A DNA stretch of 64,000 nt, taken from contig OY729428.2 of NCBI GenBank assembly GCA_963422375.2, positions 1,088,001 to 1,152,000 of the forward strand. The letters are read 5' to 3'. The DNA is from Bryobacterales bacterium (GTDB lineage: Bacteria; Acidobacteriota; Terriglobia; Bryobacterales; UBA6623). Shown here piece after piece: positions 13,792 through 63,523 of the stretch (position 1 is its first letter; each line of letters begins with the position of its first letter). Position numbers and translations under genes: made by a program. Under the pieces are notes generated by a model. That model was not told the origin of the DNA and did not search any database. It was given only the letters and a program-made list of their open reading frames with translations.

Positions 13792-14625
13792 CTACTTCCC
13801 CGCATCGCCGCCCGATTGCAAGCCTTCCGCAGGCTCGACACCCCGGCGGAGATGGCCGTAAACCGCCCCTTCCGCGAAAGGCACGCACTTGAACTCGAGG
13901 ATCTGGGCGTTCGGCTCCAGACGCCGGTACAGCGGCATGCTCATCTTCCAAGGGCGGGTGAAGACCTTTCGATCGTCGACGGTGACCTCGTAGCGCAGCG
14001 CGTTCGGCCCGGTCGGCGTGTAGCGTTCCTCGACCCGGAGCTCCTCGCTATGGAAGTTGCCCGAACTGTCGAACCAAGTGTCAGCGACCTGCGCGGTTAC
14101 GTCGACCACCAGCGTCTCGCCCTCCCAGCGACCCAGCGAGTAGCCCATCCACGACAGGGCGAGCGCCTCCGACCCGGGCCGATCCATGCGCACGACGCGA
14201 CTCGAGCTGGCGAACTCGTAGGCGAACAGGATCGACTCGGGCGTCTGGACGATCTGGAACGGGAACGGCATGTAGGTGGCTCGCGGTATGCCCGGCATGT
14301 AGCACTTCACCGCCGGATCCAGCTCGAGCCAGCTCGCCCGATTCTCGGCGCGCTTTCGCAGCGCCCAGTCCTGATAGGGGATCGCGCCGCTTTCGACCAC
14401 GCCCAGCCCGGCCGGAATCGCTCCCAGCGCTCCCAGCGCTTCGACGGGCCCGGGCCGGGCGGCGTGGGCCTCGAGATCCCAGTGCGCCGAACCCAGCGCC
14501 TGCCAGATGCCGTTCAGGTCCGGGATCCCGTCGGTCGTGCGCGTGGCGGCATACTGCCCACGCGCAGGTCCTGCCGCTCCCGCGACGATCATCAAGGCGA
14601 TTGCCAGCGCGGTTGCGTGCTTCAT
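13792..14625 (-). CDS. Conserved secreted hypothetical protein (type A paralog)
   Basis: PDLNGIWQA, DPAVKCYMPGIPR, EFKCVPF. Confidence 0.8.
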   Translation of the reverse strand: MKHATALAIALMIVAGAAGPARGQYAATRTTDGIPDLNGIWQALGSAHWDLEAHAARPGPVEALGALGAIPAGLGVVESGAIPYQDWALRKRAENRASWLELDPAVKCYMPGIPRATYMPFPFQIVQTPESILFAYEFASSSRVVRMDRPGSEALALSWMGYSLGRWEGETLVVDVTAQVADTWFDSSGNFHSEELRVEERYTPTGPNALRYEVTVDDRKVFTRPWKMSMPLYRRLEPNAQILEFKCVPFAEGAVYGHLRRGVEPAEGLQSGGDAGK

Positions 14626-14762: not shown

Positions 14763-17465
14763 TCAGAACGCCAGGCGCAGCATCAGGTTGAAGGTGCGCC
14801 CGTCGTTGAGGGTGTTGGTGATCTGGCCGAAGTTGGCGCCGGAAAGTTCGTTGCCGGGATAGGCGAACTGGGGCGTATTCAAGAAGTTGATGGACTCGGC
14901 GCGGAACGTCAGCGTGCTCTCGCTCGCGATCTTCCAGCTCCTCGACACGGAAAGGTTGATGTTTTGAATCCCGTCCTTGCGGAAGACGTTGCGACCTAGA
15001 TTCCCCGAAGGGCGGTCTGCCGGGACGAAGTCGAAGGCCGAGCGGGGCAGGAGCTCGCGCGACGTGTCGGGATGGCTGATGCTGCGTCCCAGGATCGAAG
15101 GATCCAGAAGCTGCGGACGATCGCCCATGACACCGTCGACGTTGCCGAATCCCGGCGCGTCGGAACCCGCGTACATGACGAACGGGGTGCCGCTCTTGAG
15201 CAGGGCCACCGAGTAGAGCTCCCAGCCGCCGAGGGCCTTGTTCCAAGCGGCGCCGGCCGAGCGGAGGGAAGGCGTGCGGTAAGTGGCCCGCGCGAGGACG
15301 GCGTGGGGCTGGTCGAAGTCGCTGAGGGACTTGACGTCCCCGTGCACTTCGAACTCGGTCTGGCTGCGCCCGGCGAACGCGTCGCGGACCGAGGCGTTGC
15401 TGGCGTAATGGGCTCCGAGATCGATCGCCTTGCTCAGCCAGTAGGAAAGGTCCAGCGTCAGGCCCTTCTTGTCCCGGACGCCCAGCGTGGCCTTGGCCGC
15501 GTCGAAGTAGGCCCGGGAGCCGTTGAGGATCCGGCGGACGTCGAAGTACCGCTGGTCCGGCCGGCGCTCGTTGACCGTCCGGGTGGTCCGCGGAATGCCG
15601 TCGACCTCGCGCGCCCGGTTCAGCACCCAGCCCGACAGCAGGCGATGCGAGCGGCTGCCGACGTAGCCGACCTGCGAGAACAGTCCCCCGGCAGTCGCCG
15701 CCTCCCAGCTGAAGTTGTACTGGTGCGAGTACGGAGCGACCAAATCCGGAGCGATCCGAATGATCGTCGTGCGGGCGTTCGGGTCCGCGACATCGACTAG
15801 GAAGCCGGCCAGAGGATCCAGCAAGTCCGGGGCGACGACGTTGAGGCGAATGTTGCCCGGGGGGTTGAAGCGCTCCTGCGTGTAGGTGGCCGTGAAGATC
15901 TCCCCGTACTGCAGGCCGTAGACCCCGCGCAGGACTCCGGCCGACGTCCTGTAGGCGAATCCGAAGGCCGGCGCGACGTTGTTGCAGTCGCAGCGGTAGG
16001 GCAGCGTCGACAGGCCGTTCACCTCGAGCGGTCTCGTCGTCGGCTCGAACCGGATGCCGAAGCTGAGGGTCAAGTCGCGACGGGCCCTCCACGTGTCCCC
16101 CGCGAAGTACTGCATGCGCCAGCGCCTGAAGCCCCTGCGCGGGGTCCCGATCGATTTCGAGATCCGGCTGGGCGTCCCCAGGCGCAGATTCGTGATCATG
16201 GCGCGACCGAAGTTCGCGCTGAACAGGATGAGGCCGGCATGACCGGAGCTCTCGATGCCGTTGAGCTGCTCCCGCGTCACCGCAAAGCCCGCGCTGAGGC
16301 GGTGGGCGCCCCTCGTCGTCGAGGCCAAGCCCGCGTAGCGGTAGAAGTTCTGGACGCGGTCGTAGGGGATGCTGGAGGTTCCGCCGATCGATTGCAGCTG
16401 GCGGCCCATCCAGATGACCGGGCCGAAGGCCGTCTCGTCCTGGACGATCAGAGAGGTCATGCGCCGGAAACCGGCGGAGAGCTGGCCGGTCGTCGCCGGC
16501 GACCAGTCGCGGGTCCATGTCAGTCGGCCGTCGTGGGAGCCGGTCGTGGTGTTGGGATTCTGGCCCTTGATGAGCTGGAACGCGTCAACCCGCTGCTTGC
16601 GGAACCTGTAGTCGGTCGCGACGCGGTCGCGGTCGCCGAGCGGCAGGTCGAACCGGCCGCCCGCCACGTCGTTGTCGATCTCCTGCGGGGCATTGGTGTT
16701 GTGCGCCCTAGGGTTGATGTCGGGCCGATTGGGCGCCTCCGCCGGGAAGGAATCCAGGATGCGGGACACGACCGCTCGCAGGGCCGGGTCGGTCGCCAGG
16801 GGAGTCCGCTCCTCCGGCCGCGGAATCAGCACGTTGCCGTTCACGTTGCCCCGGTTGCGCTGCTGGGACAGGTCGACGGTGAGAGCGGACTCCGCGAACA
16901 GGGGCAGCAGGAGATTCGCGCCGAAGTCGTTCGAGCGGGCCGGCTGCACGGCCCCGACTTGGAAGAACGAGCGCGCGGAAAGCGCGCTGTTGCCGTGGCT
17001 CTCGTAGAGCGACCCGTGCAAGCCCCGGGCGGAGGCCCGCTTGAGATGGATCTGCCGCATGGGCGGGTTACCGAACTCGCTGCCGAAGTAGCCCTGCGAG
17101 GGGGCGAACTCCCGCACGACCGTCGCGCTGGTGCCCATGCGGATGTTGATTTCCTTCTGGACGTTGTTGTCGACCAGCGTGAGCTGCACGTTCTCGTTCC
17201 GCCGGCTCTCCCCGGAGTCGGCGTCGACCTCCCCGAGCAGGTTCAGCTCGGTGCGGTCGGCCGCCGCCCAGCCGGCATCCTCGCCGGTCCCGGCCACCGC
17301 CTCGTCCGCGGCGACGGAAGGCTCGGAGGGCGCGGCGTCCTCGCTGGAGGCCGAGCGCCCGGAAGCTGCCTGGCCCGCGGCGGCGAGCCCGGCAACTAGG
17401 GCGAACGCGAGGGCCAGCCGGAAGGTCCGGCCGCCGGGCCTGGCGGTGCCGAGGTCGAGAAACAT
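14763..17465 (-). CDS. TonB-dependent receptor, Oar-like (acidobacterial type)
   Basis: Signal peptide; AGDTWR...LTLSFGIRFE, NNVAPAFGFAY, FRAESINFLNTPQF...FGQIT, and a terminal LRLAF beta-barrel signature. Confidence 0.85.
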   Translation of the reverse strand: MFLDLGTARPGGRTFRLALAFALVAGLAAAGQAASGRSASSEDAAPSEPSVAADEAVAGTGEDAGWAAADRTELNLLGEVDADSGESRRNENVQLTLVDNNVQKEINIRMGTSATVVREFAPSQGYFGSEFGNPPMRQIHLKRASARGLHGSLYESHGNSALSARSFFQVGAVQPARSNDFGANLLLPLFAESALTVDLSQQRNRGNVNGNVLIPRPEERTPLATDPALRAVVSRILDSFPAEAPNRPDINPRAHNTNAPQEIDNDVAGGRFDLPLGDRDRVATDYRFRKQRVDAFQLIKGQNPNTTTGSHDGRLTWTRDWSPATTGQLSAGFRRMTSLIVQDETAFGPVIWMGRQLQSIGGTSSIPYDRVQNFYRYAGLASTTRGAHRLSAGFAVTREQLNGIESSGHAGLILFSANFGRAMITNLRLGTPSRISKSIGTPRRGFRRWRMQYFAGDTWRARRDLTLSFGIRFEPTTRPLEVNGLSTLPYRCDCNNVAPAFGFAYRTSAGVLRGVYGLQYGEIFTATYTQERFNPPGNIRLNVVAPDLLDPLAGFLVDVADPNARTTIIRIAPDLVAPYSHQYNFSWEAATAGGLFSQVGYVGSRSHRLLSGWVLNRAREVDGIPRTTRTVNERRPDQRYFDVRRILNGSRAYFDAAKATLGVRDKKGLTLDLSYWLSKAIDLGAHYASNASVRDAFAGRSQTEFEVHGDVKSLSDFDQPHAVLARATYRTPSLRSAGAAWNKALGGWELYSVALLKSGTPFVMYAGSDAPGFGNVDGVMGDRPQLLDPSILGRSISHPDTSRELLPRSAFDFVPADRPSGNLGRNVFRKDGIQNINLSVSRSWKIASESTLTFRAESINFLNTPQFAYPGNELSGANFGQITNTLNDGRTFNLMLRLAF

Positions 17466-24859: not shown

Positions 24860-26880
24860 AACACTCCTGAGGTCATCCTCAACGCCGAACTTGCGGCATC
24901 GCTGCGGCAACGGGGGCTAGAGGCCGAATCGGAACAATCGCTGCAAGCCGGCACTCGGCGCCATCAAATCGACGTGCTGGTGGAACTCGGCGAATTCGCC
25001 GTGCCAATCGAGGCGGAGTTCGCACCTGCTCGCGCCGTTCGAGAGGACACGGAAAAGCGCCTGCCAAGGTTTCCGCTACTATGGCGAGGCCTTGCCATTG
25101 ATTTCGTATTCGCGGTGGTCTACCCGGAGCAATTCAAGCGAATCCCAGAGAGCCGCGCGAAGGACAAACTGGCCAGTTGCGATTCGCTCGAATTCGAGAG
25201 ACTGTACCGAAGAGAGCAGACCGGCACATCGGAATCCCGGCCAGGTCACGTGTCGGGGACCCGGCAGCGACGCTCGGTTGCCACCTTGGCCGAGTACCTG
25301 CACCACCTGTGGATCGGTAGCGCCAAGAGCGGTTCGGTGAAGGAGACGGTCAGCAAAGCCTCTTCCCCCATCGGGCAGGCCCGCGACATGCTCAGGCCAG
25401 AGTCCCAGTCTCACCCTTTCTCGGCAGTCGACGGCGATCCCGAGTCAACCACCGCTCTGGTCTGGCTGAACGCCGTGTTGTTCCAAGAATTGCTGGCCGA
25501 GCATCGTGACGCGTCACATTTGCCCCGCGCCCTCCGCGACATCCGTATCCCGAAGCCTGATCCCGAAGGCCGGCCGACTGTCCTGCTCGGTCAATGGAAG
25601 ACGATCCTTCGCGTCAACTGGTGACCGGTAATCCAAGTGGCGCACGAGGCATTGAATGTCACCCCTTCGAGGCAGGCTTCGCTCGCGCTACGAGAGCTCG
25701 TCGAGACAGCTTCGGAGATCGCGAGCCAGGGAGTGACCCGAAGGCACACTATTGCAGGCAGAATCTTCCTTAGGCTTCTCGGCACGAGGAAGTTCCTAGC
25801 CACCAACTACACTAGTGCCCGTGACAAAACTCGTATCCCCTTGACAACAAAGGTGTTAGGTCCAATCTCTCAAGGCGAAGATTTCGCTGGAATGCTACGA
25901 CTAATCCGAAATCCTGGCGATTCTGGGTAGAGCGCGGAAATCTTCGCGATTGGCGTCTGAGTAACTTCCGACCTTGGGCCCTATATATTGTGTTTGGAGA
26001 TCCATCCGACCTCAGGATGTAGTATGAAATGCTGATCGGGCCAGAATTCAGGGGTTTTGTCACAAGCACTACACTACGATCCCCGCCGCAGTCCTGCACG
26101 CCGGGAGGGCGGGCGGCCGGATCGCGCTTGTGCTGCCGGCAACCGTACTGACGGGGAGCCGATGGGCTCCGATCCGCGCAACGCTTCTCGCGGAATTCGA
26201 CGTTGAGTGGGTGGTAGTGAGCCATGACAGCAGGCACCGGTCCGGGAAAGGCGATCTACGGGGAAGACATTGGGTCGCTTTCTCGGAATCGACCCGGATG
26301 GCCGACGCGCTGATCATTGCCAAGAAGAGGCGTTCGGGAGGGTGCCGGGAGACACGCGTCACGCGCTTAGTCAACCTTCGGCGCAACCCGGACGAGGTAA
26401 TTGACGCGATGGCGATCACGAGAGCGCTGCTCGAGAACTCCAGACGTGCCACAGTCGGCCCGCAGGCCGAAATCCTTGTCGGTGATCAGACATGGGGCGA
26501 GATTCTCGCGGTCACGCAGTCGCATCTCGGCAAGGGGCCGTGGACCGACGGGACGTTCTCACAGGGTCGCTTGGTCAAGACTTCTCCGGATCCTGCATGC
26601 AAACAGCCCGTACCTAGGACGAAGCTCGCTTCCCCATCAACTCGCCCGACACCTTCCCGTCCTGCACTTGGGCTCGCTGACGGAATCGCAACGGCAGGCA
26701 GCAGCCGGCCTGTTCGAAGATCTGAAGCACAGGAAGCTGGAAGCCTTCGCGACCTTGGCCAGCGACATGACCCGGAGGGAACTCGACCGCCGGCTGTTCT
26801 CCGAGGTTCTCGGCCAGGAGGCCGGGCCCGAGCTAGACCGGCTGGCCAGCACCCCGAACAAGGAACCCGCAATGACCACG
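24860..26880 (+). pseudogene. Decayed fused (type IIG-like) restriction-modification enzyme
   Basis: N-terminal IDVLV...IEAEF nuclease-like motif; stop at 25622; KFLATNYT|TIPAAVL split by a MITE; the SAM-binding and NPPF core appears deleted; GGRIALVLP...FSEST and a C-terminal tail remain in different frames. Confidence 0.65.
25813..26071. mobile_element. 259-bp MITE, copy 1
   Basis: Terminal inverted repeats TAGTGCCCGTGACAAAAC / GTTTTGTCACAAGCACTA, duplicated flank (TACACTA on both sides), near-identical copy at 54060. Confidence 0.9.
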
Positions 26881-49462: not shown

Positions 49463-51388
49463 ATGCATTCATCCCGTCCCGGGCAAGCGGCTAGTCTCGC
49501 CACGGCGTGCCTGCTGGTCTCGGCCGGCACCCTCCTGGCGAAGTCCAACGGTGCGCCGAGCGGCCACACGGGCGGCCCGTTCCCTGGCGAGCAGAGCTGC
49601 ACCGTCTGCCACGGCGGCTCCGAGATCAACTCCGGGAGCGGCACGCTCGCGATTTTGGTCGACGGCGCGCCCGCTTCGGAGTACCGGTACACGCCTGGCG
49701 AGACCGTGTCGCTGATCATCAATTTCAGCGACCCGGACGCGCAGCGCAGCGGCTTTCAGGTCACCGCCCGCTTTGCCGACGAAGGCTGCGGCCAAGCCGG
49801 CAGCTTGGCCCCCGGCCCCTCCCCGAGCACCTCCCCCGTGAAGATGGTCAGCGGAAGCTGCGGCGCCGGCAACGTGCAGTGGGCGACGCAGCGCAGGGCC
49901 GCGAGCGGATCCTCGGCCACCTGGGACGTAGCGTGGACCGCACCGAGCGAGGACATCGGGCCGGTCACGTTCGCCGTCGCCGCGAACGGCGCGAACGGCA
50001 ACGCGTCGACCTCGGGCGACAGCATCTACCAGATCCGAGCAACGGTCGAACCGGAGGCGGCAGCCGCGCCGCCGGCGATTTCCGACGCGGGAGTCGTGCT
50101 CGCGGACCTGCGCAGCGCGACAGCGAAGGGCGCTCCGAACGCTTTGGCGACCGCCCGCGGGTCGGGTTTCGCGGCGGCGACGGTCGTGGGCTCAAGCGGC
50201 GTCTTGGAGGCGGCAGGAAGGGTCAGCACGGTTCTCGAGGGCTCGTGCGTCGAAGTCAACCAGCAGCGGGCCCCGCTCGTCCGTATCGCGCATGACGAGG
50301 CCACCTTCCAGATCCCGTCGGCGGCCGGCCTCGGGGCGGCCACGGTGCAGGTCATCCGGGGCTGCGACACGCCGGAGGGAGCGCGCAGCAACAGCATCGC
50401 GTTCCCGATCTCTGCCGCGCAGCCGGTCCTGTTCCAGTTCTCCGAAGAGGACGAGGGCACGTCGGCGCTACTGCCGGACCTGTCGCTGGCCGCGCCGGCC
50501 GCCGACACGGGCACGCTGCGGCGCCCGGCCCTGCCGGGCGAGGTAGTGACCTTCCTCGGCACGGGATTCGGATTGACGGCACCGCCGCTTGAGACTGGCG
50601 AGATATCGCCACTGCCGCGACGGCTCGCGACGGCCAGCATCCGCCCGATGATCGGCCAGTTCGAGGTGCAGGCCGACCACATCCTGTACGCCGGTGCGTC
50701 TCCGGGCTTCGCCGGCTTGTACGAGCTGAGCCTGCGCCTCCCGGACAACGTACCCGCCGGCTCCCATGCGTTCGGCGTGCTGGTCAACGGCGTGGCCTCC
50801 GCGACGGGTCCGAAGCTGGAAGTAGGCGCGCTCCCAGCGCCTCCGCCGGTCACCGGCCCGACTACCGAGGTCGAGTGCGCGGTCGGCTTGGTCGTCAAGC
50901 CCGGCGGGCGCTGCACGGCAACGGTCGCCGGGATCGAAGCCTCGTTCGAAGTGCACGCGACGACCGGCCAAGGCTGCATCGCGGCCGGAGCGGTGAGCAC
51001 TTGCGATGCCTCGAAGCTAGCGGCCAACGGAGCCGAGGCGTCGAAGAATGCCGACGGCAGCTGGACACTTCACAAGATGCCGACAGCCCCGCCTCCGGAT
51101 AAGCCGGCGACCGACGAACCCGTCACCTGCAACAAGGACATGGTGCTCGGGCCGGGCCAGAGCTGCAACGCAACGGTCGACACACCCACTTTCGGCGTGA
51201 TCACCGGCCGCTTGGACGTTGACGCGGGCGGCAACGCGTGCGTGGAGGCGCTGCAGGGCTTGATCAAGGCGTGCGGCATGAAGGACATCAACGCCAACCT
51301 AGGCATCATTGGGGGCGAGGTCAAGGACAACGGCGACGGCACGTGGACTATTACCAAGCTGCCTCCGCCGCCGGAACCCTCGCCGTAA
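49463..51388 (+). CDS. Secreted multidomain protein: Reeler-like domain with CxxCH, TIGR03437-like domain and two Cys-rich C-terminal repeats
   Basis: SCTVCH, GFQVTA, WTAP, NGANGN...GD.IY; PGEVVTFLGTGFG...YAG.SPGFAGLY; two repeats ending DG(S/T)WT..K.P. Confidence 0.78.
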   Translation: MHSSRPGQAASLATACLLVSAGTLLAKSNGAPSGHTGGPFPGEQSCTVCHGGSEINSGSGTLAILVDGAPASEYRYTPGETVSLIINFSDPDAQRSGFQVTARFADEGCGQAGSLAPGPSPSTSPVKMVSGSCGAGNVQWATQRRAASGSSATWDVAWTAPSEDIGPVTFAVAANGANGNASTSGDSIYQIRATVEPEAAAAPPAISDAGVVLADLRSATAKGAPNALATARGSGFAAATVVGSSGVLEAAGRVSTVLEGSCVEVNQQRAPLVRIAHDEATFQIPSAAGLGAATVQVIRGCDTPEGARSNSIAFPISAAQPVLFQFSEEDEGTSALLPDLSLAAPAADTGTLRRPALPGEVVTFLGTGFGLTAPPLETGEISPLPRRLATASIRPMIGQFEVQADHILYAGASPGFAGLYELSLRLPDNVPAGSHAFGVLVNGVASATGPKLEVGALPAPPPVTGPTTEVECAVGLVVKPGGRCTATVAGIEASFEVHATTGQGCIAAGAVSTCDASKLAANGAEASKNADGSWTLHKMPTAPPPDKPATDEPVTCNKDMVLGPGQSCNATVDTPTFGVITGRLDVDAGGNACVEALQGLIKACGMKDINANLGIIGGEVKDNGDGTWTITKLPPPPEPSP

Positions 51389-51807
51389 GCCCTTACGACT
51401 CATTGCCAGAGGCTCGATCCGGTTCCTGCACGACGAGTGGCAGGCGGTGACCGGGCCGAGGAGCGACTGGACATTGACGCGCGCATTGGACGACGAGCCA
51501 AGCGCACGTTGAGCGCTGGATGCCTCAGAGCGGCGTTTCTCGCCCACCGCTCCCCGTTCGAACCGATCGCGCGTCGGTCGCTCGGAGACAATCCTCGACC
51601 GTATCCTTTCCGCGCCTGACGGTCCAGCGTAAGTCTATCGGGTCAAGACCGTGGGCACGCGACGCGATTCTGGTATAGTCGACGCGGACGAGAATGGTAT
51701 TGGCTGGGCTGCGGTCATGGGTGAAACGTCTTTGGCCTTTCACAAGGAAACCCCCATCGCCTGCAAGCCCCGTCTCCTAGGATCCCGTTTCCGAACCTTC
51801 GCCGACC

Positions 51808-54006
51808 ATGGCGGGCTCGCACTCCGAGCAACCACAGGCAGGAGATACTCCCCGCGATGGACTTTCCGATAGTCAATCTGAGACCGGGCCACTGGTCAAT
51901 AAAACCAGGCCTGCCGAGTCGAGCCCCACTCCTGCCGAACCTCCATCCGATCACGCCGCTCCCGAAAACGAACATCCTTGCCCGACCGACGATGCCGACG
52001 ATCAAGTTCCGCTCGATTCGGAAGGAACCGAACCCCACGAGACGTCCACCGGCGCCCCACCAGCCGATGACGACGGGCAACACTCTCCACCGAAAACCGG
52101 CAACTTCCGGGAAAGCGGCAACCCGGACGGCAGTAGCGGGAGCAATGCGAGCGCAGGTAAATCACCGAATACGAATCGCACCGGGAGACGAGGCCGACAG
52201 TCCGGCAATCCGGGATCGGAGCGCCGAGAATCTCCATCATTCCGCCCTGGACTGATTTGCCGGTTAAGTTCCCGCATCCGCGATATGGGAGGTCTTCCTG
52301 TTCGAGGACGAGCGGTGGCCGGTGGCGGCGGTGCGTCTCGGAGACACTCCTCTGGAAGTCACAGGCCGACGCTGCCGTCTCCCTTCGCTCAGCGGCTGCC
52401 TGAGCGTTTTCTTCCGGGACGGACAGGAACGCGCCGTTCCGCTGTTCGAGGGCGAGCCCTTGATCTTCAAGCTGCGTAAGAACTGGACGGGCGAGGGGCG
52501 CAGAATCGCCCGGACTACGACCGGTCACTTCATCGTCATCGCGCCGCATACGTGGGAAGGGACGGGGCATGCACCGGTTGAAGCGCACGGTTGTGCGGAT
52601 CCGGCATTCCGGGCACACTATTTTCACCGGGACCCAACTGCGTCGGACGGGAACGGCGACGGATTCCGCGAGTGGAGTCCTTTCCTGTCTGCCGCAAGCA
52701 TCGAACTGACCGGGCACCGCATCTTCGACGATTCGAGCGACGAAGATCTCTTCTTTGGCGACCCGCCCGGTCTGGAATCCTCACCGGAATTTGAGTGGTC
52801 GCGGGTCAGAGAGGAGGCCGAACACGGATAGGGACAGAACTTCCGGCCCGACCGGGAGTCTCTTCCGGAAGTTCTGGCTGGCAGAGAAGGCCGCTCTTAT
52901 CTCCGCGGTTACGACCCGGAAGTCAGCCTGCTCGACAGTGTGGCGTTCCGGTATGTGCGCAATTTGAGCCGGATCGAAGTCGATGGGTCGGAATATGCTC
53001 AAGACACGGTGCTCGTGCCGACGAAGACGGGCTATCCGCGCACGCAGGTACGCTTCATCGGCACCGATGGCACATCACGTACTCCGGTACTACTGCCGGC
53101 CGAAGCACACCAAGCCATAGCGCCGTCGGGCGCGGTCATCGTTCCGTCGCACCCGGACGCGGACCCAATAAAGTGCAGTCTTGGATCGGGCGGCGATACC
53201 GTGAACATCGTCCTGAACCTTCCCCGAATCTGGTGGCGGCTGGAGGACGGACGGCCCCGTACGGACGAGTGGCGCGACACGCAGCTCGTCATGACACGTG
53301 AGGAGTTCAAGAACCACGCCTACGCGGGAGCGAGGCTCTCACTCTTGTCGAAACGGGAGGCATCGGTTCGCGCAGGGTTCGACGATGAACCGGGCCAAGA
53401 GTACAGCCGAACAATCGAGGAGAAGCGCATCGCGATTCCCCTAGCACACTTCGTCGACCACGCTCAGATCGACCGGAGACTGAGCGTCGATGCGCATTTC
53501 AACGTCGAATGGGCCGGAGAGATTGTCCCGCTCATGGTGATTCGCGCCGACCCCATACCCGAGATCGTGTCCTTCACCGCGGAACCGGAGGCGGTGTTCG
53601 GCGGTCAGGAGGCGATTCTGGAGAGTGGACGACCCGGAACGCCAGCGAAGCCCTCGTGGCCATAGATCCAGACATAGGCGTGGTCGGAAGCAATGGAACC
53701 TTTACCGTCCGCCCCACTGAAACGACCCGATACGCGCTCACCTTGGCCGTTTCCGACACCAACGATATCTGCAGGACCGTAACGGTTAGCGTCGATTCGC
53801 TGCCTGGGTCCGGAAAGCGACCAGCCGCTCGCGTTATGTCTACCGGAGGCGGATGGAGAGTCGGTAAGGGGTTCAGTCGCCTTGAACTCAAGAGCGTCGG
53901 CCTGACAGTGCCGGAGGCAGCGGATCGTTCGATCCCCGTTGACAGGCGCCGGCAAACCTCACACCGGGTCAACGTAGATGCAATCAGGAGCATGCTCGAT
54001 GCCTGA
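51808..54006 (+). pseudogene. Decayed large protein upstream of the helicase (DruH-like position), ending in an Ig-like domain and an eL13-like domain
   Basis: Four ORF pieces join through a frameshift near 52280, a TAG at 52829 and an AG duplication near 53622. C-terminus is RVGKGFSRLELKSVGL...IPVDRRRQTSHRVNV. Confidence 0.7.
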
Positions 54007-57000
54007 GATCGACATTCGGGATTGGCCGGAGAGAGTCCGGGAACGCTATGAGAACTACCTAGTGCCCGTGACAAAACTCGTATGCCCTTGACAACAAAGG
54101 CGTTAGGTCCAATCTCTCAAGGCGAAGATTTCGCTGGAATGCTACGACTAATCCGAAATCCTGGCGATTCTGGGTAGAGCGCGGAAATCTTCGCGATTGG
54201 CGGCTGAGCAACTTCCGACCTTGGGCCCTATATGTTGTGTTTGGAGATCCATCCGACATCAGGATGTAGTATGAAATGCTGATCAGGCCAGAATTCAGGG
54301 GTTTTGTCACAAGCACTACCTAAAGACCTCCTTCTACTTCAAGGAACGCCCCCTCCGGTCATCCTTCGAGAAAGCCCTGCGCAAAGAGGGAAGACTCCTG
54401 AAGGGGCCTTTTCCGGAACGCCACCGTGGGTTCGCGACAGGCATGGCCGCGCGGGCGCTGGCGGCCGAGTGTTTCCGCGGCGGGGCCGAGGGTCTCTTGC
54501 CAGCGCTGATCGACGGCCCGTTGTATACGCATCAAGAACGCGCCATCCGCACCACGCATGTCGAAGCACTGAACGTGGTGGTCGCCACCGGCAGCGGCAA
54601 AACGGAGAGCTTCATCTACCCCGTCTTGTTTGAACTCTACCGCCAGCATCTCGCCGGAGAGCTCGAAGAGCCGGGGGTGAGGGCCATGATTCTCTACCCG
54701 ATGAACGCGCTCGCGAACGATCAGCGCGAGCGTCTGGGCAAGATCTGCAGGGACTTGAAGGAGGCCGGATCCGAATTTGAACCGACATTCGGGCAATACA
54801 TCGGCCAGACGCCGGAGAATGCCGGGGACAGACGGCGCTATGCCGCCGCACGCTATGAAGCTTGCTTGCCGGGGGAGCTTGTCTTTCGCGAAGAGATGCG
54901 CCGGTTCCCGCCGCATGTCCTGCTGACCAACTACTCCATGCTGGAGTATCTTCTCATCCGTCCCGACGACAGCCTTCTGTTCGACGGCGGGCGAGGCACG
55001 CATTGGCAGTTCGTCGTGCTCGACGAGGCGCATCAGTATCGCGGCGCACGGGCATCGAAATGGGGATGCTGGTCCGGCGCCTCAAGCAGCGCCTGCGCGA
55101 CGGGGGACGGCAAGATCCGTTCCGATGCATCGCCACCAGCGCGACGATTACCACCAGCCAGGACGACGAAGACAGGCAGGCGGTTGCGGAATTCGCGAGA
55201 GAACTTTTCGGGGAGCCCTTCTCAGGACGCGCTATCGTCTTCGGCGAATCGCGTCCGTCCGGCGACGATGGAGCTCCCCGGCGCTTCCACGCGTTTCTCC
55301 GCGCACTTGAAGGCGCCTTCCTCGTTCACCAAGAAGACGCGGATACCGTGGTGCTCAATCGAAAGAGCGAGGGCGGACCTGGCGCGGCCGGGAAGCCCTT
55401 GGAAATCGCGCTCTGTCGAGAGTGCGGCCAGCATTACTATGTCGGCCGGGAACATGGGGGTCGGTTGCGAGAGGCCGTTCGCGATCCGAGCGATCCGGGT
55501 TTCGGTGTCGATTACTACCTTCCGACGGACGATGGAGACCATTCGCCATGCAGACACTGCGGCATCCTGTCAAGGTCCACGCCCGGCTGCGACTGCGGTG
55601 CAACGATTCCGGTGATGAAATGCGACTCCGACGCACAGAAGCCCGACCAACTAAAGCGGTGCGAGTTCTGTGGCTATCGGCGCGGCGGGGTCGGCGATCC
55701 CGTTCAGGAAATCGTGCATGGATCGGACGGGCCGAACTCCGTGATCGCGACCGCCCTTCACGAACTGCTTCCGGAAGGCCGGCGCAAGGTTCTCGCTTTC
55801 GCCGACAGCCGCCAGGAGGCGGCGTTCTTCGCTTGGTACGCCGAGGATTCCTACGAAAAGCTACGCGACCAAAACTTCATCCTGCGGGCCATTAAGTCCG
55901 AACCCGTAGCTGAGGAAGGGCTGTCCATCGACGACCTCCGGAACCGCCTGCTCCGGCAGTGGGACGAGGCCGGGCTCTTCAGCGAAGCGGATACACGGGA
56001 GCAGCGAACCCGCCGTGTTCTCACGTCCATCCTGCGAGAGGCGTTGACCGAGGAGAAGAGACTGTCCCTGGCCGGCGTCGGCTTGGTCAGATGGTTCATC
56101 GCACTGCCCCAAGACCTGCGTATGCCGGGCATTGTGGGGCGCTCGCCATGGAATTTCACCGAGATCGAGGCGCGCGCGCTGGTCGGCTACCTGCTGAACG
56201 AGATGCGTCAGCGCCGCGCGATGAGCCTGCCCGGGGGCGCCGATACGCCGCCATGGAACGACATCTCACCCTGGCCGCAAGAGGCATTCGGGAACGCGCC
56301 GCCGAAAAGTCGACGCCACATCGTGCAGTGGGACGGCCCCCAATCCGCGATCGTCAGTCACTTCCTTCGAAGGCTCCTCGCGCATAGCGGCCTGTCCAAG
56401 GACAGGAAGCGATGCGCGTCGACGGAACTGATGACGGCGTTATGGCGCGCATTGCGCGAATATACCGACGATCCCGTACTAAAGCCTGCGAAGGTAAACG
56501 GCACGTTCCATCTCGATTCGCGCTGGCTCCGGATCAAGCCCGCCCGCCTCGACGATGTCCGGGAGTGCGACACCTGCGCCACTCTTGCGAACCACGACGT
56601 TCGAGGCGTCTGCCCCCGAAACAAGTGCCCAGGCACGCTCTCGCCGGCCCGTCGCGACCACCCCGACGGGAACCACTATCGAATCCTCTATGAGAGTTCT
56701 GGATTGCCCCCGGCTCTGCGCGCGGAAGAACACACCGCTCAGATCGATGCCGACGAGGCGCGCAAGAGGCAGGAGCGCTTCAAGACCGGCGAAATCCACC
56801 TCCTAAGCTCCTCCACCACGTTCGAGGTCGGCGTCGACCTTGGCGACTTGGAGTCCGTGTTTTTCCGCAACGTCCCCCCGGAATCGTTCAACTACGCTCA
56901 GTGCGCCGGTCGGGCCGGTCAGCGGGACACACCCGGGCTGGTGCTGACCTACTGCCGCCGAAATCCCCACGACCTCTATCACTATGAGAGTCCCGTCGAC

Positions 57001-58059
57001 CGAGTGATCGAGGGTGCGATTCATCCGTCGCGCTTTCGCATGACGAACGAGAAAATCTTCCTGCGGCACATGGTCGCCGTCGCCTTGGCTGAATTCTTCA
57101 AGAAAGACACTGTCAGGTTCCAGAACATCGAGACCTTTGTCGGTGACCGGCATGCACCTCAGGCGAGAAGCGACCTTTTCACATTCTGCGAAGATAACGG
57201 TGCGTTGAAGGAGACCATGTTCCGCATCGTTCCGGAGAACATGCATGGGCACATCGGTCTCGAGGACGAAGCTTGGATTGTCAACATCGCCGGCAAGAAG
57301 AGCCGCCTTGCCTTGGCAGAGACGGACGTGTGCGCGGACTACACTGAAATGGAGGCCCGTCCCAGGCAATGCTTCGAGCAGGGCAGAGATAGCTGGGTCG
57401 GGCGCATCGGCAAGCGCATGAAGACCATCGCGGAGGAACGGACGCTCAATTTCCTTTCCCGAAAGGCCGTCATTCCAAAGTACGGATTTTCGGTGGATGT
57501 CGTGGAGCTCGATGTCCGTTCCACCGATGGACAAGCGACTGGCGTCGCGCTCCAGCGGGACCTGTCGCAGGCGATCGCCGAGTACGATCCCGGCGGCAAG
57601 GTGGTTGCCAACAAGCTCGAGTGGAAGTCATGGGCGTCAAGGCGGTTGCCGGCAAGGCATGCCCGGTGCGCCATTACCGTTACGACGACGCACGCAACTT
57701 CAAGCAATGGAACGAAGGCAATGCAGAGGCACGACCGCATGAACGGAAGTACCTCATTCCCGAGTTCGGCTTCGTGACAGACCTATTCTAGAAACCCTCC
57801 GAGCCGAAGGGACGGGCGCGCCGCTTGTACACAACGCGGCCATTCTTCAGGGGGTTCGAGGAGCAGCCTACAAGCAAGACCATGTTCGGCGGCGTGCAGA
57901 TGACGCAGGCCGTACCCGGTATGCTAGTCATCCTTTGCGAAGGCAGGAACCGGGAGGGCTTCTACATCTGCCGTTCCTGCGGCAGACACATGGCCAAGCC
58001 GCAGGTAGCCCACAAATCTCCGTCGGACTCCGACTGTACTGAGGGGCGCAAAAGTCTTT
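53999..58059 (+). pseudogene. DEAH-box helicase with Zn ribbons (Druantia DruE / DUF1998-helicase-like), disrupted
   Basis: GSGKTESF, YPMNALANDQ, LTNYSMLEY, DEAH, FADSRQEAA, EEHTAQ, STTFEVGVDLG, QCAGRAG. Disrupted by a MITE at 54060, frameshifts near 55050 and 57630, a stop at 57789, and ends at the IS1595. Confidence 0.85.
54060..54318. mobile_element. 259-bp MITE, copy 2
   Basis: Same terminal repeats as copy 1; flank TACCTA duplicated; removing it restores ...ERYENYLKTSFYF. Confidence 0.92.
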
Positions 58060-58990
58060 CCTGATTACCCACAAGACTCAGCCAAGGTTAGGAGGCGGTA
58101 AGGCATGGGTGAGGTGCGCACGGAGGCGTGGAGCAGGCGGGGGACCAGCGCCTCCAGGTCGTAGCGGCGGTTGAAGCGGTAGCGGAACTCGGCGAGGTAC
58201 CGCGGCACGTGCTCGCAGCCGGCGCCGGCCACGCCCCGCAAGCAGGCCGGGCCGTCGGAATGCACCTCCGTGCCGGGCTGCAAGTGCCGCCCGGCCCACG
58301 CTGCCAGCGTCTTCTTGCGCAAGCCCGCCACGCTGCTCAGGCGCATCCTTGCCGGCTGGCCGGCGGCGGTGACCTGCACGGCGGCGACGAACGGCGTCTT
58401 GCCCGCCGCGCCGCGCCCGCGCTTGCCGCCGCTCCGCTCCCCGCCCCAGTAGGCCCCAGTAGGCGTCGTCCACTTGCACGATGCCGTGCAGCGGCACGCG
58501 CTCGTCGCGCTCCTTCAGCACTGGCAGGAGCTTGTGCTGCACCTTCCAGGCCGTGTCTTCCAGGCCGTGTTCCGGCTGACCTCCAGCTGCCGCGCCAGTT
58601 CCAGCGACGAAACGCCGTGCTGGCCCTGCGTCAGCGGGTGGATCGCCGGGAACCAGACGGTCAGCGGCAGCTTGGTGGCGGCCAAGATCGTGCCGGCGAC
58701 GAGGGAGGTCCGGCGGTGGCAGGCATTGCACTGCCGGAGCTTGCGGGAGCGGATGCGGCAGTGCCGGCGGGAGCCGCACTCCGGGTAGCGGAAGCCGTCC
58801 GGCCAGCGGGCGTTGAAGACGGCGTGCTCGCATGGCCCCTCGCTGCCGTAGCGCTGCAGGAACTTGCCCAGGCTGAGTCCCTTCTGGAATTGCACGCGAT
58901 TGCGTTTCATCTGCTATCTCCTTTCATATCATAGATTTCTAACCTCCTTCAGTATAGCATATCCTCGGCTGACGTTCGTTGGTAATCAGG
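58060..58990 (-). mobile_element. IS1595-family element (defective, internal deletion)
   Basis: Ends CCTGATTACC...GGTAATCAGG; transposase with Zn ribbon, VQVDDAY, HSDG and YLAEFRYRFNRR, frameshifted. Confidence 0.9.
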
Positions 58991-59222: not shown

Positions 59223-60265
59223 CCTGATTACCAACGAATGTCAGCCGAGGATATGCTATACTGAAGAAGGTAGGAAGTCTCTGATAAGAAAGGAGATAGC
59301 AGATGAAACGCAATCGCGTGCAATGCCAGCAGGGACTCAGCCTGGGCAAGTTCCTGCAGCGCTACGGCAGCGAGGGGCCATGCGAGCAGGCCGTCTTCAA
59401 CGCCCGCTGGCCGGACGGCTTCCGCTGCCCGGAGTGCGGCTCCCGCCGGCACTGCCGCATCCGCTCCCGCAAGCTCCGGCAGTGCAATGCCTGCCACCGC
59501 CGGACCTCCCTCGTCGCCGGCACGATCTTCGCCGCCACCAAGCTGCCGCTGACCGTCTGGTTCCTAGCGCTCCACCTGCTGACGCAGGGCCAGCACGGCG
59601 TTTCGTCGCTGGAACTGGCGCGGCAGCTGGGCGTAAGCCGGAATACGGCCTGGAAGACACGGCCTGGAAGGTGCAGCACAAGCTCCTGCAAGTGCTGAAG
59701 GAGCGCGACGAGCGCGTGCCGCTGCACGGCATCGTGCAAGTGGACGACGCCTACTGGGGCCTACGGGGGCGGGGAGCGGACCGGCGGGCAAGACGCCGTT
59801 CGTCGCCGCCGTGCAGGTCACCCAGGTCACCGCCGACGGCAAGCCGGCAAGGATGCGCCTGAGCAGCGTGGCGGGCTTGCGCAAGAAGACGCTGGCAGCG
59901 TGGGCCGGGCGGCACTTGCAGCCCGGCACGGAGGTGCATTCCGACGGCCCGGCCTGCTTGCGGGGCGTGGCCGGCGCCGGCTGCGAGCACGTGCCGACCG
60001 TCACCGGAGGCGGGCAGCGGAGCTGCGCGGATTCCCGCTTCGTCCGGGTCAGCAGGATGCTGGCGAACGTCAAGCAGTCCCTGGCGGGAACCTGCCATGC
60101 GCTCGACGGCAAGCACCTGCCGCGCTACCTCGCCGAGTTCCGCTACCGCTTCAACCGCCGCTACGATCTCGAGGCGCTGGTCCTCCGCCTGCTCCACGCC
60201 TCCGTGCGCACCCCGTCCATGCCTTACCGCCTCCTAACCTTGGCTGAGTCTTGTGGGTAATCAGG
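59223..60265 (+). mobile_element. IS1595-family element (defective), inverted copy
   Basis: Same ends and near-identical frameshifted transposase in the opposite orientation. Confidence 0.9.
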
Positions 60266-62233: not shown

Positions 62234-63523
62234 ATGGCCGATTCCACCCAGGCAGCGGTGCTCCTAGTCGCGACTGTCGGCGGTTCGCCGGAACCTCTCG
62301 TCGCGAGCATCCTGCATTGGAAGCCGCAACGGATCCTGTTCGTGCCCTCCGTGACGTCCGCCGATCAAGTCGACGGCATTCGCGTTGCGCTGCAAGAGCG
62401 CGGACACGAACTGCCGCCCGGCACCTACGAGGCGATTCCCGTGTCCGATCCTCAGGATCTCGCCAAGTGCGTGCGAGAGATGCGTCGCGGCTTGGAGGAA
62501 GACGCAGCGAAATGGTGCGGCCGCGGGGAGCACTTCCGCTGCGTGGTCGACTTCACCGGTGGCACCAAGTGCATGACGGCTGCGCTGTCGAATCTCGCCC
62601 GCTACTGGCCGCGTGTCGAATTCTCGTTCGTCGGGGGCTTCGTGCGCGACAAGGGCGGAGTCGGCATCGTCCAGTCCGGAACGGAGCAAGTGGTCTCGGC
62701 CGCCAATCCATGGGCCGTCTTCGGGCATCAGGCGGTCGAGGATGCGATCGTCGCGTTCGACCACCACGACTACCACGAGGCCACCGCCTGGCTACGAGCC
62801 GCGATTCCTAAGGTCCGTTCCGATCCGGCCCGAGCGAGCGAGCTGAGCGCGCTGGCGACATTCGTGGAGGGATACGACCTCTGGGACCGGACCGAGTACA
62901 GCGAGGCGTACGGGAAGTTCGGGCAGTGCTCGAAGAAGCTGAACGACCTCTCCGCGGCATTGCTGCACATGGGTCCCGAATGCCTCAGAAGGTATGTCGG
63001 CGCCGCGCGGGAAAAGTTGGAAGCGCTGAAGAGAGATACCGGGCGACCGACTCGGGCGCTGCTCGAGGACTTGCTCGCGAACGCCGCGCGGCGCAAGGAC
63101 GAAGGGCGTCACGTGGACGCCGTGGCCCGTCTGTACCGGGCGATCGAGCTCGCGGCGCAGCTGCGATTGCTCGAGGGGTTCGGGATCCGAACCGCCGCCG
63201 TTCCGGTTGCCGAACTGCCGGAAACGCTCGCCGATAGCGTCAAGCGGAGGGCGGCTGACGGCTCCGTGACACTGGGCCTGCAGGATGCCTACGCCTTGCT
63301 GCGCCACAGGGGCGACCCGCTGGGCGAGCGGTTCTTCGCCCTGAACTGGAACGGCCGCCGGTCGCCCCTGGCCGGGCGCAACGATTCCATCGCCGGGCAT
63401 GGGTTCGCGCCGGTCCCGAAGGAGACTTGCGCCCAACTCTGGGAAGGCGCCCTCGCCCTCGCCGGCCTGCGTGCCGACGAGGTGTTCCAATTCCCGACGC
63501 TCGGACTGGGCAGGCGCTCCTGA
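62234..63523 (+). CDS. TIGR02710-like CRISPR-associated CARF protein with a HEPN-like C-terminus
   Basis: ATVGGSPEP, VDFTGGTKCM, DAVARLYRAIEL.AQ and RNDSIAGHG. Confidence 0.85.
   Translation: MADSTQAAVLLVATVGGSPEPLVASILHWKPQRILFVPSVTSADQVDGIRVALQERGHELPPGTYEAIPVSDPQDLAKCVREMRRGLEEDAAKWCGRGEHFRCVVDFTGGTKCMTAALSNLARYWPRVEFSFVGGFVRDKGGVGIVQSGTEQVVSAANPWAVFGHQAVEDAIVAFDHHDYHEATAWLRAAIPKVRSDPARASELSALATFVEGYDLWDRTEYSEAYGKFGQCSKKLNDLSAALLHMGPECLRRYVGAAREKLEALKRDTGRPTRALLEDLLANAARRKDEGRHVDAVARLYRAIELAAQLRLLEGFGIRTAAVPVAELPETLADSVKRRAADGSVTLGLQDAYALLRHRGDPLGERFFALNWNGRRSPLAGRNDSIAGHGFAPVPKETCAQLWEGALALAGLRADEVFQFPTLGLGRRS

Follow-up and report, generated by a model that had tools for sequence, protein, structure and literature searches.

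The C-terminal tail of a bacterial helicase partner protein reads as an exchangeable slot, which is usually filled by the core of eL13, a ribosomal protein of archaea and eukaryotes, and which appears to have been overwritten many times, in one case by a copy of the host's own RNA polymerase subunit omega. The protein family is described here from a broken copy in a 64,000-nucleotide stretch of a Bryobacterales bacterium (assembly GCA_963422375.2, contig OY729428.2, positions 1,088,001 to 1,152,000 of the forward strand; this whole stretch is called the window below). There the partner gene, which we call X, and a YprA/DruE-type helicase form a dead two-gene module at 51694-58064 on the + strand, with both genes in the same orientation and both broken. 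An earlier note on this DNA, made from its letters, had seen a Druantia-like pair whose first protein ends in an eL13-like domain; it was right on the identity of that domain and on its linkage to the helicase and wrong in placing the upstream gene with DruH. The exchangeable tail is the main result beyond that note. Relative loci are labelled L001, L005 and so on, and relative proteins P0004, P0113 and so on. The module consists of the following parts.

51694..54006 (+ strand): partner gene X, a pseudogene, placed by tblastn of the intact L001 protein and codon reading
51694..52263 (+ strand): N-terminal helix (MVLAGLRSWVKRLWPF), then a long acidic Pro/Ser-rich linker; in alignment A1 the helix is conserved and the linker variable
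52268..53820 (+ strand): conserved all-beta core of several beta-sandwich domains, from core alignment A2 and the AlphaFold2 (AF2) model of relative P0004
53821..54003 (+ strand): eL13-core tail, from Pfam PF01294 on 53857-53964 and a profile of 26 tails against the PDB
53999..58064 (+ strand): DruE-type (YprA-family) helicase, a pseudogene with its 3' end cut off, from PADLOC, Pfam and tblastn

The eL13 core as the usual tail

In the window the tail of X reads RVGKGFSRLELKSVGL...VDRRRQTSHRVNVDAIRSML, and the open reading frame (ORF) at 53509-54006 ends ...GGGWRVGKGFSRLELKSVGLTVPEAADRSIPVDRRRQTSHRVNVDAIRSMLDA*, which confirms the eL13-like motif noticed earlier at 53821-54003. The Pfam family Ribosomal_L13e (PF01294), a check that had been proposed for this tail, matches its 61 aa above the gathering cut-off (E 2.8e-6, 27.8 bits against 24.9), covering profile positions 63-98 of 180. 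Among 20 aligned relatives, 16 carry Pfam L13e at E<=0.01 (best 2.3e-8), and the remaining four have a different tail. The NCBIfam model of archaeal L13e, NF008914, matches the tail of L001 at E 3.2e-13 over profile positions 26-73 of 83, with a score of 49 bits that lies under the equivalog cut-off of 96 bits. When a profile of the 26 tails (A3) was compared with all PDB chain sequences, 70 distinct sequences were matched at E<=0.01, and 58 of the best 60 of these are eL13 chains of solved ribosomes. The best of them, 9e6q_AH (157 aa), is matched at E 3.7e-14 over 50 residues that include both motif halves, and eukaryotic eL13 chains follow at 1.9e-10 to 2.8e-6 (in yeast, residues 59-120). 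The same profile also reaches archaeal L13e proteins of small size (E 1e-18 to 1e-12), whose source names are Bathyarchaeia, Thaumarchaeota, Methanomethylicota, Desulfurococcales and Staphylothermus; PF01294 is present in all 120 short proteins listed among the A3 matches. In addition, the invariant tail residues F, S, E, D, R and N of GKGFS..E...D.RR....N are eL13 core residues. By sequence, then, the window tail is a true homologue of the eL13 core, as had been proposed.

That the likeness is a chance or convergent short motif instead of homology seems to us scarcely credible. The match spans merely ~36-50 residues, and the top two PDB rows for A3 are not eL13 but Legionella IcmE/DotG (9ngw_A, 7muc_AG), in which GFSxxELKxAG occurs as a tandem repeat; both facts would suit such a reading. 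However, the IcmE/DotG scores are sums over many weak repeats, and no single DotG stretch passes on its own in that search, whereas one 50-residue stretch of the tail matches solved eL13 through both halves of the motif. The NCBIfam match, the prevalence of eL13 among the best solved sequences and the PF01294 matches in the short proteins argue against chance as well. As a separate observation, the GFSxxELKxAG of IcmE/DotG is the first half of the eL13 core motif, by homology or by convergence. In a number of archaeal L13e proteins of ~130 aa (P0273, P0283, P0287, P0288, P0292, P0299 and others; one bears the name Bathyarchaeia L13e), the eL13 core is followed by a C-terminal helix-hairpin-helix extension (HHH_5).

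The tail and ribosomal eL13 thus share a common core, G[KR]GFS..EL..AG....A....I.VD.RR..H..N, with profile matches that are significant in both directions. They differ in that the X tail is this core alone (profile positions ~61-98 of 180, or 26-73 of 83) and in that it ends a ~780-aa bacterial protein found in metagenome-assembled genomes (MAGs) whose ribosomes lack eL13, as bacterial ribosomes do. Because only the conserved core is present, the X tail is a homologous domain and not a ribosomal protein.

An exchangeable C-terminal slot

The window copy belongs to a sizeable family. A search with a 241-aa middle piece of X returned 170 longer proteins, the best 120 of which are 43-75% identical, and a core-only profile from which the tails were left out (A2), scored against 1.84 billion representatives, returned 1,299 proteins at E<=1e-30, a count raised by giant Ig-repeat proteins that are unrelated. 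The best 150 matches of the latter search all lie below 1e-136, and 146 of these are family members, so that the intact relatives called for by the earlier note do exist. At one genome per species we found 40 loci, all in MAGs, whose record titles name Gamma- and Alphaproteobacteria, Rhodothermales, Bryobacterales, Terriglobia, Binatia, Dehalococcoidia, Nitrospinales and others. Identity of X across phyla is often 55-69%, which suggests horizontal spread of the family. No relative was found among 104 candidate stretches of viral contigs; metagenome contigs gave eight loci, and all six of these that have complete tails end in eL13.

The pairing with the helicase, whose conservation the earlier note had asked to be tested, is conserved: X is immediately followed by a helicase gene in 38 of the 40 loci, and the two exceptions are L022, on a 4.4-kb contig that ends after X, and L007, in which X is truncated. 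A shared third gene was not found among the 36 loci with a called helicase ORF, where the largest neighbour cluster occurs in five. Two side observations concern gene structure in the relatives. Extra N-terminal domains, a PIN domain in P0186 (E 1.4e-5) and a DUF4389 domain in P0137 (E 1.3e-17), may be real fusions or merged gene calls, and the helicase match of L012 is split (it is lost with the end of the ORF at 13895 and picked up again at 15087), which hints at an inserted stretch of ~1-2 kb or some other break.

The C-termini of the 40 loci comprise 32 eL13-type tails, four tails with a YYRG motif, one Ribosomal_S17, one omega, one TrcR and one that is incomplete (L007). Six of the 32 eL13-type tails are a divergent NKRFS...VD.RR version, for four of which Pfam gave E 6.5e-5, 1.7e-4, 0.066 and no match. 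The uS17 tail of L031 is a full-length Ribosomal_S17 (Pfam E 2.2e-28), that of L023 matches RNA_pol_Rpb6/omega (Pfam E 7.3e-9), and that of L032 is made of the first 46 positions of TrcR (E 1.7e-11). Elsewhere in the family the slot holds the N-terminal domain of RpoA (P0244; NCBIfam rpoA E 6.8e-66, positions 8-230 of 320), uS5 (P0169, E 4.9e-28, and also P0233), a NusA C-terminal repeat (P0227, E 1.7e-7, under its cut-off) and a MacB/ADOP periplasmic domain (P0239). Six of the seven named kinds of non-eL13 tail (uS17, uS5, RpoA-N, omega, NusA-like and TrcR) are thus ribosomal, RNA polymerase or transcription-factor proteins, and since genes of gene expression make up a few per cent of a genome, the choice of tails is not random.

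Other tails have no assignment. Second in frequency comes the YYRG tail (16 of the best 120 of the 170 proteins), which matched no Pfam or NCBIfam family; it gave no usable match in the ESM Atlas, its best VIA-align score against 48,161 chains was Z 4.2, with none at Z>=5, and its AF2 model, built from four sequences, has a predicted local distance difference test score (pLDDT) of 66.7. Tail T4, of the P0193 type, likewise gave no usable Atlas match and no Pfam or NCBIfam family. Readings of tail T6 (P0139, P0182) as bS6-like and of tail T7 (P0188, P0266) as HARE-HTH-like were dropped for want of Pfam or NCBIfam support.

Across the 146 representatives among the best 150 matches, a census gave 112 eL13 tails, two cut eL13 tails, two eL13 tails with an insert, 20 other tails of 12 kinds and 10 that are short or unclassified. 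Some ~79% of representatives retain the eL13 tail with the residues of its core motif invariant, although the cores of the X proteins share just ~30% identity. In a core-only FastTree tree of 144 rows, from which incomplete cores and unclassified tails were dropped and to which 10 loci were added by hand, the other tails are scattered within eL13 clades; the tree needs 20 changes of tail state, at least 12 of them forced by well-supported branches. Because of this scatter, the eL13 tail looks ancestral and seems to have been overwritten many times.

One such replacement can be followed at the level of DNA. The L023 genome holds two omega matches of equal score, its own rpoZ (96 codons) and the tail of X, ~733 kb apart on the same contig. 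All 96 of 96 residues are identical, including the initiator Met, and at the DNA level the likeness extends from 5 nt upstream of the ATG to ~12 nt beyond the stop; the four differences within it are all synonymous. Behind the omega stop, in another frame, stands QLTPIDKRRRSAHQRNIEMLGRLMDA*, the second half of an eL13 tail, overlapping the helicase ATG. As this eL13 remnant lies directly behind the omega stop, a host gene has evidently replaced the first half of an eL13 tail. Both genes of L023, X with 815 codons and the helicase with 1420 (stop to stop), are still open. In L031, a decayed remnant, DARIASSHEVNLNALKGTRDA*, lies behind the uS17 tail; the genome's own rpsQ, with 52% identity to that tail, has its customary place in the gene order L16-L29-S17-L14-L24. 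In L032, the TrcR tail is 60% identical to the genome's own TrcR over 47 residues.

Replaced tails also seem to be maintained once acquired. Between diverged members that share a tail, identity in the tail is close to that in the core: 61% against 56% for uS5, 61% against 57% for eL13 with an insert, 50% against 44% for T4, and 40-63% against 46-73% for YYRG. All tails compared in this way remain open. Because tail identity is similar to core identity and every frame is open, this comparison, which is not a formal test, argues that replaced tails are probably kept by selection and are not junk.

These results also bear on a reading in which the slot is a mutational hot spot where highly expressed genes insert by accident, the tails having no role and core and helicase sufficing; we consider it improbable. 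It would fit the omega insertion of L023, which destroyed half of the eL13 tail and uncoupled the overlap of stop and start and yet left both genes open, and the captured genes are by textbook knowledge among the most highly expressed in any cell. It would also fit a recurrent point of insertion: in P0166 and P0250 the eL13 tail is split by an insert of ~60 residues, and these inserts and a short extra stretch in L057 all lie at the same point, between the GFS..EL..AG helix and the D.RRR segment. A tail without a role would not, however, be expected to persist with invariant residues in most representatives while the cores diverge, nor would diverged members be expected to share alternative tails that have kept an open frame and match the core in conservation, nor would every omega/rpoZ difference be silent.

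The module, Druantia type III and the decay of the window copy

The helicase is DruE-like, as the earlier note had it. In the window, the PADLOC models DruE3 and DruE1 match the helicase pieces at E 3e-42 to 9e-55, and Pfam finds DEAD and Helicase_C. The intact helicase of L001 (L001:12060-16271, 1403 aa) has the Pfam domains DEAD, Helicase_C and MZB (MrfA Zn-binding) and scores 3e-152 with DruE1 and 6e-141 with DruE3; the closest solved chains to it are 9tu7_Y, a 2108-aa DEAD/DEAH helicase (1.6e-70), and YprA, 6znp (5e-22). The make-up of a DruE, a YprA-family protein with DEAD, Helicase_C and MrfA Zn-binding domains, is thus found entire in intact relatives and in pieces in the window. The nuclease of Druantia type III-A was not found, as no phospholipase D (PLD) family is among the Pfam matches of the 1403-aa helicase at E<=0.1. 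Table S1 of PMC12458937 classes the helicase of the L005 contig as "Druantia Type III-B-like", and that paper describes this branch as most often without a nuclease. The gene before the listed helicase, OXF56_01355, is our P0113 and is named only 'hypothetical protein'.

X and its helicase resemble the compact III-B or type III-like branch of Druantia type III (PMC12458937; 10.64898/2026.05.13.724758) in having two genes, with the partner first and a YprA-family DruE helicase second, in an operon without a further conserved gene, and resemble most of the III-B-like branch in that the X-linked helicase also lacks PLD nuclease domains. The partner itself differs. The earlier note had placed DruH before the helicase, and this is the point on which it fails. 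None of five intact X proteins gave a PADLOC match at E<=1, and the window pieces gave no DruH family at E<=0.01. The DruH3 model PDLC00038 found no match in the window's own genome. In 401 genomes of its phylum it picked out two DruH3-type genes, and when the X profiles were compared by hhalign with their two proteins, used as single-sequence templates, the probabilities were 1.9% and 0.1%. As far as tested, X is not DruH, and the single-sequence templates leave room for a very remote homology. Among PDB sequences, profile A2 had no match other than a spurious one at 0.046.

The AF2 model of P0004 (20 sequences, mean pLDDT 69) shows a helix at 3-36, then a disordered stretch of ~120 residues with pLDDT <50 to residue 155, and nearly all strands, mostly at pLDDT 70-95, at residues 159-676, followed by a low-confidence tail. 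A Foldseek search with the whole model returned generic arrays of immunoglobulin-like (Ig) domains only (E ~1e-8, template modelling score ~0.1), and no DruH-like chain was among them. In the window a clear Ig-like module, at 53626-53820, is the last core domain. E. coli Druantia III-A DruH is described as six Ig-like subdomains between a globular domain at the N-terminus and another domain at the C-terminus (10.64898/2026.05.12.722862) or, in a second description, as ten domains, several of them fibronectin type III (Fn3)- or Ig-like (10.64898/2026.05.13.724758). X is like it in operon position, in consisting mostly of Ig/Fn3-like beta-sandwiches and in having a distinct C-terminal part. It is unlike it in several respects: sequence relationship is not detectable; X is shorter, with ~500 structured residues against ~1100; and the globular N-domain of DruH and its fixed C-domain, which binds single-stranded DNA (ssDNA), stand against a helix with a disordered linker and a variable tail in X. 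The Druantia literature examined makes no mention of an exchangeable C-terminal domain of ribosomal or RNA polymerase origin.

As far as seen, the helicase branch is already in print as III-B-like, and the partner X and its tails are not. A full-text literature search found no paper that joins eL13, L13e or PF01294 with Druantia or DruE, which agrees with the earlier statement that the fusion is undescribed; by their titles, the papers found for 'integrated decoy' with 'anti-phage' do not concern the X family, and the available supplementary files of PMC12458937 contain no L13e, PF01294 or eL13 term except in one locus tag.

The window copy is a pseudogene on both sides of the junction. Lesions were mapped by tblastn of the intact L001 proteins onto the window and by reading all three frames. 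X starts at the ATG at 51694, which encodes MVLAGLRSWVKRLWPF... and matches the conserved N-terminal helix of the relatives. It has two TAG stops, at 51778-51780 and at 52829-52831 (Trp at that position in relatives), and two frameshifts, near 52264-52268 and near 53623, and ends at its own stop at 54004-54006. The tblastn match of L001 X accordingly runs through q2-208 at 51682-52263 (frame 1), q210-660 at 52268-53623 (frame 2) and q660-785 at 53623-54000 (frame 1). The three lesions reported earlier are all real; the fourth, the TAG at 51778-51780, was missed by a start at 51808, downstream of it. The overlap of the X stop with the helicase start, also seen earlier, holds and reads ATGCCTGA at 53999-54006. 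Contigs of three public runs from two studies match 51600-54012 with 0 differences and 0 gaps, so the X lesions are not errors of a single assembly, with the proviso that one of the three runs may be the source sample. In the window's own genome, a search for an intact X copy found only the broken copy and an unrelated Ig-like match.

Damage to the helicase is much heavier than had been stated, although the call of a pseudogene itself was sound. The tblastn frame map runs 53999-54061, 54308-55066 (frame 2), 55051-57666 (frame 1) and 57624-58037 (frame 0), with frameshifts near 55047-55066 and near 57632 and a TAG at 57789-57791. Two kinds of mobile element, a miniature inverted-repeat transposable element (MITE) and insertion sequences (IS) of the IS1595 family, lie in and behind the gene:

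54062..54322 (+ strand): 261-bp MITE after helicase codon 21, with 18-nt terminal inverted repeats and direct repeats
58065..58934 (- strand): IS1595-family transposase remnant that ends the helicase, Pfam DDE_Tnp_IS1595 at 58065-58379 and Zn_ribbon_IS1595 at 58515-58910
59303..60260 (+ strand): second IS1595-family copy in inverted orientation, Pfam Zn_ribbon_IS1595 at 59303-59698 and DDE_Tnp_IS1595 at 59811-60260

The IS1595-family element truncates the helicase at ~58064, and the last ~138 residues, including the MrfA Zn-binding domain, are lost. In both IS1595-family copies the Zn-ribbon and DDE parts sit in separate ORFs. The inverted repeats of the MITE lie at 54060-54077 and 54301-54318, and its direct repeats are AGAACTACCTA and AGCACTACCTA. 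Its own genome holds at least 40 scored copies of the MITE (257-261 bp, 95-100% identity, from 113 candidates) across all three contigs, one of them in the window at ~25815-26072 (G000:C2:1113815-1114072), and read depth in public runs rises ~100-fold in MITE bins. Recoding of TAG was considered for the three in-frame stops (51778, 52829 and 57789) and rejected, as these TAGs replace different residues of the relatives (Trp, Lys). With different residues replaced, and with four frameshifts, the MITE and the IS cut nearby, decay explains the stops.

The same public runs (X1-X3 and X6) also contain related helicase copies that are at least 90% alike and have a higher summed depth (54949-55104, 57540-57632). 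In these copies an additional base, G near 55047-55049 or C at 57632, leaves the frame unshifted at that point, which suggests that other members of the community carry versions of the system without these frameshifts.

Of the neighbouring genes, a Csm6-like protein is encoded at 62234-63523 (+ strand), 4 kb past the dead module, with a Csm6 HEPN domain (E 1.3e-30) and a Csm6 6H domain; Csm6 is an ancillary nuclease of type III CRISPR systems. On the other side, a 641-aa ORF at 49463-51388 (+ strand) has a signal-like N-terminus and a CxxCH motif and matches no Pfam family at E<=0.001. The stretch around the dead module looks like a defence or mobile-element corner.

Possible roles of the tail

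The locus probably represents the remains of a self-contained defence module of two genes that belonged to the Druantia type III-B-like group. The effector would be the helicase, a compact YprA/DruE protein of ~1400 aa in which DEAD, Helicase_C and MrfA Zn-binding domains are present and a nuclease domain is not. Characterised DruE is described as unwinding DNA 3'-to-5' from a 3' single-stranded region, and by analogy the helicase would load on the invader's 3' single-stranded DNA and unwind it. X, with its helix, disordered acidic linker, beta-sandwich array and C-terminal slot, would take the place of DruH as sensor or adaptor subunit. For Druantia III, DruH has been proposed to be an infection sensor activated by late phage proteins (10.64898/2026.05.12.724681); other accounts describe it as an ssDNA binder (10.64898/2026.05.12.722862) or as a scaffold to which E. 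coli DruE is joined by host proteins that dissociate once infection sets in (10.64898/2026.05.13.724758). The slot of X, usually an archaeal-type eL13 core, may be an exchangeable interaction module and the specificity end of such a sensor, overwritten repeatedly by complete small proteins or by domains drawn from the host's transcription and translation apparatus. The tail would then be either a bait, which phage factors aimed at the ribosome or RNA polymerase bind or modify, or a dock on that machinery. That the tail is a bait or dock for the gene-expression machinery, with the identity claims above included, we judge to be slightly favoured.

The earlier note had suggested that an RNA-binding eL13 module might act as sensor or adaptor. 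A related reading, that the tail is a generic small basic binder of ssDNA or RNA that holds the strand exposed by the helicase, like the C-terminal region of E. coli DruH, strikes us as rather unlikely. By textbook knowledge eL13, uS17 and uS5 are rRNA-binding proteins, the NusA-like helix-hairpin-helix repeat and the TrcR N-terminal piece are also among the tails, and E. coli DruH is described as binding ssDNA between Ig5 and the C-terminal domain (10.64898/2026.05.12.722862). The same slot, however, accepts the RpoA N-terminal domain and omega, which are assembly modules of RNA polymerase, and a MacB/ADOP periplasmic domain, and a generic binder offers no reason for a host gene to be taken whole and kept identical. 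Because RpoA-N and omega bind proteins and not nucleic acids, we prefer the bait or dock to plain RNA binding; an RNA-binding role of the eL13 module may still be entertained, and these tails point to a bait or dock instead.

It has also to be asked whether the tail could itself be the effector, a fused subunit that enters or competes for the assembly of ribosome or RNA polymerase and so brings about an abortive shutdown of expression. All identified tails except one are assembly-competent subunits of these machines, which would suit this role. Nevertheless, the assembly of such machines is slow relative to an infection cycle, bacterial ribosomes by textbook knowledge offer no site for eL13, and characterised Druantia III is reported to clear phage without growth arrest (10.64898/2026.05.13.724758). 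We think an effector role very unlikely.

Returning to the bait or dock, its closest parallel lies outside bacteria. Integrated decoy domains are extra variable domains in the nucleotide-binding leucine-rich-repeat (NLR) immune receptors of plants and fungi. X resembles such receptors in combining a conserved scaffold with a variable copy of a host protein, as the omega tail of L023 is of rpoZ. It differs from them in protein family and in kingdom and in that its commonest tail, eL13, is not a host protein, so a variable domain derived from a host protein is found in the omega tail of L023 and not in the eL13 tails. A full analogy, in which X would be a bacterial immune sensor that captures host gene-expression genes as bait, phage hijackers would trip the helicase and an archaea-derived ancestral eL13 core would be the default bait or dock, is tentative and, on present evidence, doubtful.

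Several points weigh against the bait or dock and its extension to decoys. Defence activity is predicted from helicase homology only, and the sensor role of X would be transferred from DruH by position and not by homology, as X is not detectably related to it. Since bacterial ribosomes have no counterpart of eL13, the eL13 tail cannot be a decoy of a host protein; we know of no docking site for eL13 on the bacterial ribosome, and of no pathogen effector that targets X tails. AF2 models the eL13 tail of P0004 at pLDDT <50, which gives no structural confirmation of the fold. Only the omega tail is shown to copy the host's own protein, as uS17 and TrcR have the lower identities given above. The tree of tail changes was built with FastTree only, and five of the 10 loci added by hand had been picked for their odd tails. 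The MacB/ADOP tail of P0239 falls outside the gene-expression theme, and five tail kinds, making up 12 of the 20 'other' representatives, have no family match. Finally, the bias toward ribosomal and RNA polymerase proteins could reflect a capture process that favours highly expressed genes and not function.

The window copy itself is a relic, but the family to which it belongs would be a new form of Druantia-type defence that lends itself to experiment. In Druantia-type systems the partner protein is suspected of sensing infection. The X family amounts to a natural experiment on this point, in which the same helicase and scaffold are kept and the tail has been swapped many times among proteins of the ribosome and RNA polymerase; one swap has been caught in the act with the host's own rpoZ, and specificity is directly testable by exchanging tails. 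If the tails are baits, they would be the first bacterial counterpart of integrated decoys and would indicate ribosomal proteins and RNA polymerase subunits as targets of phage. Independent of function, a piece of an archaeal/eukaryotic ribosomal protein has become fixed and widespread in bacteria.

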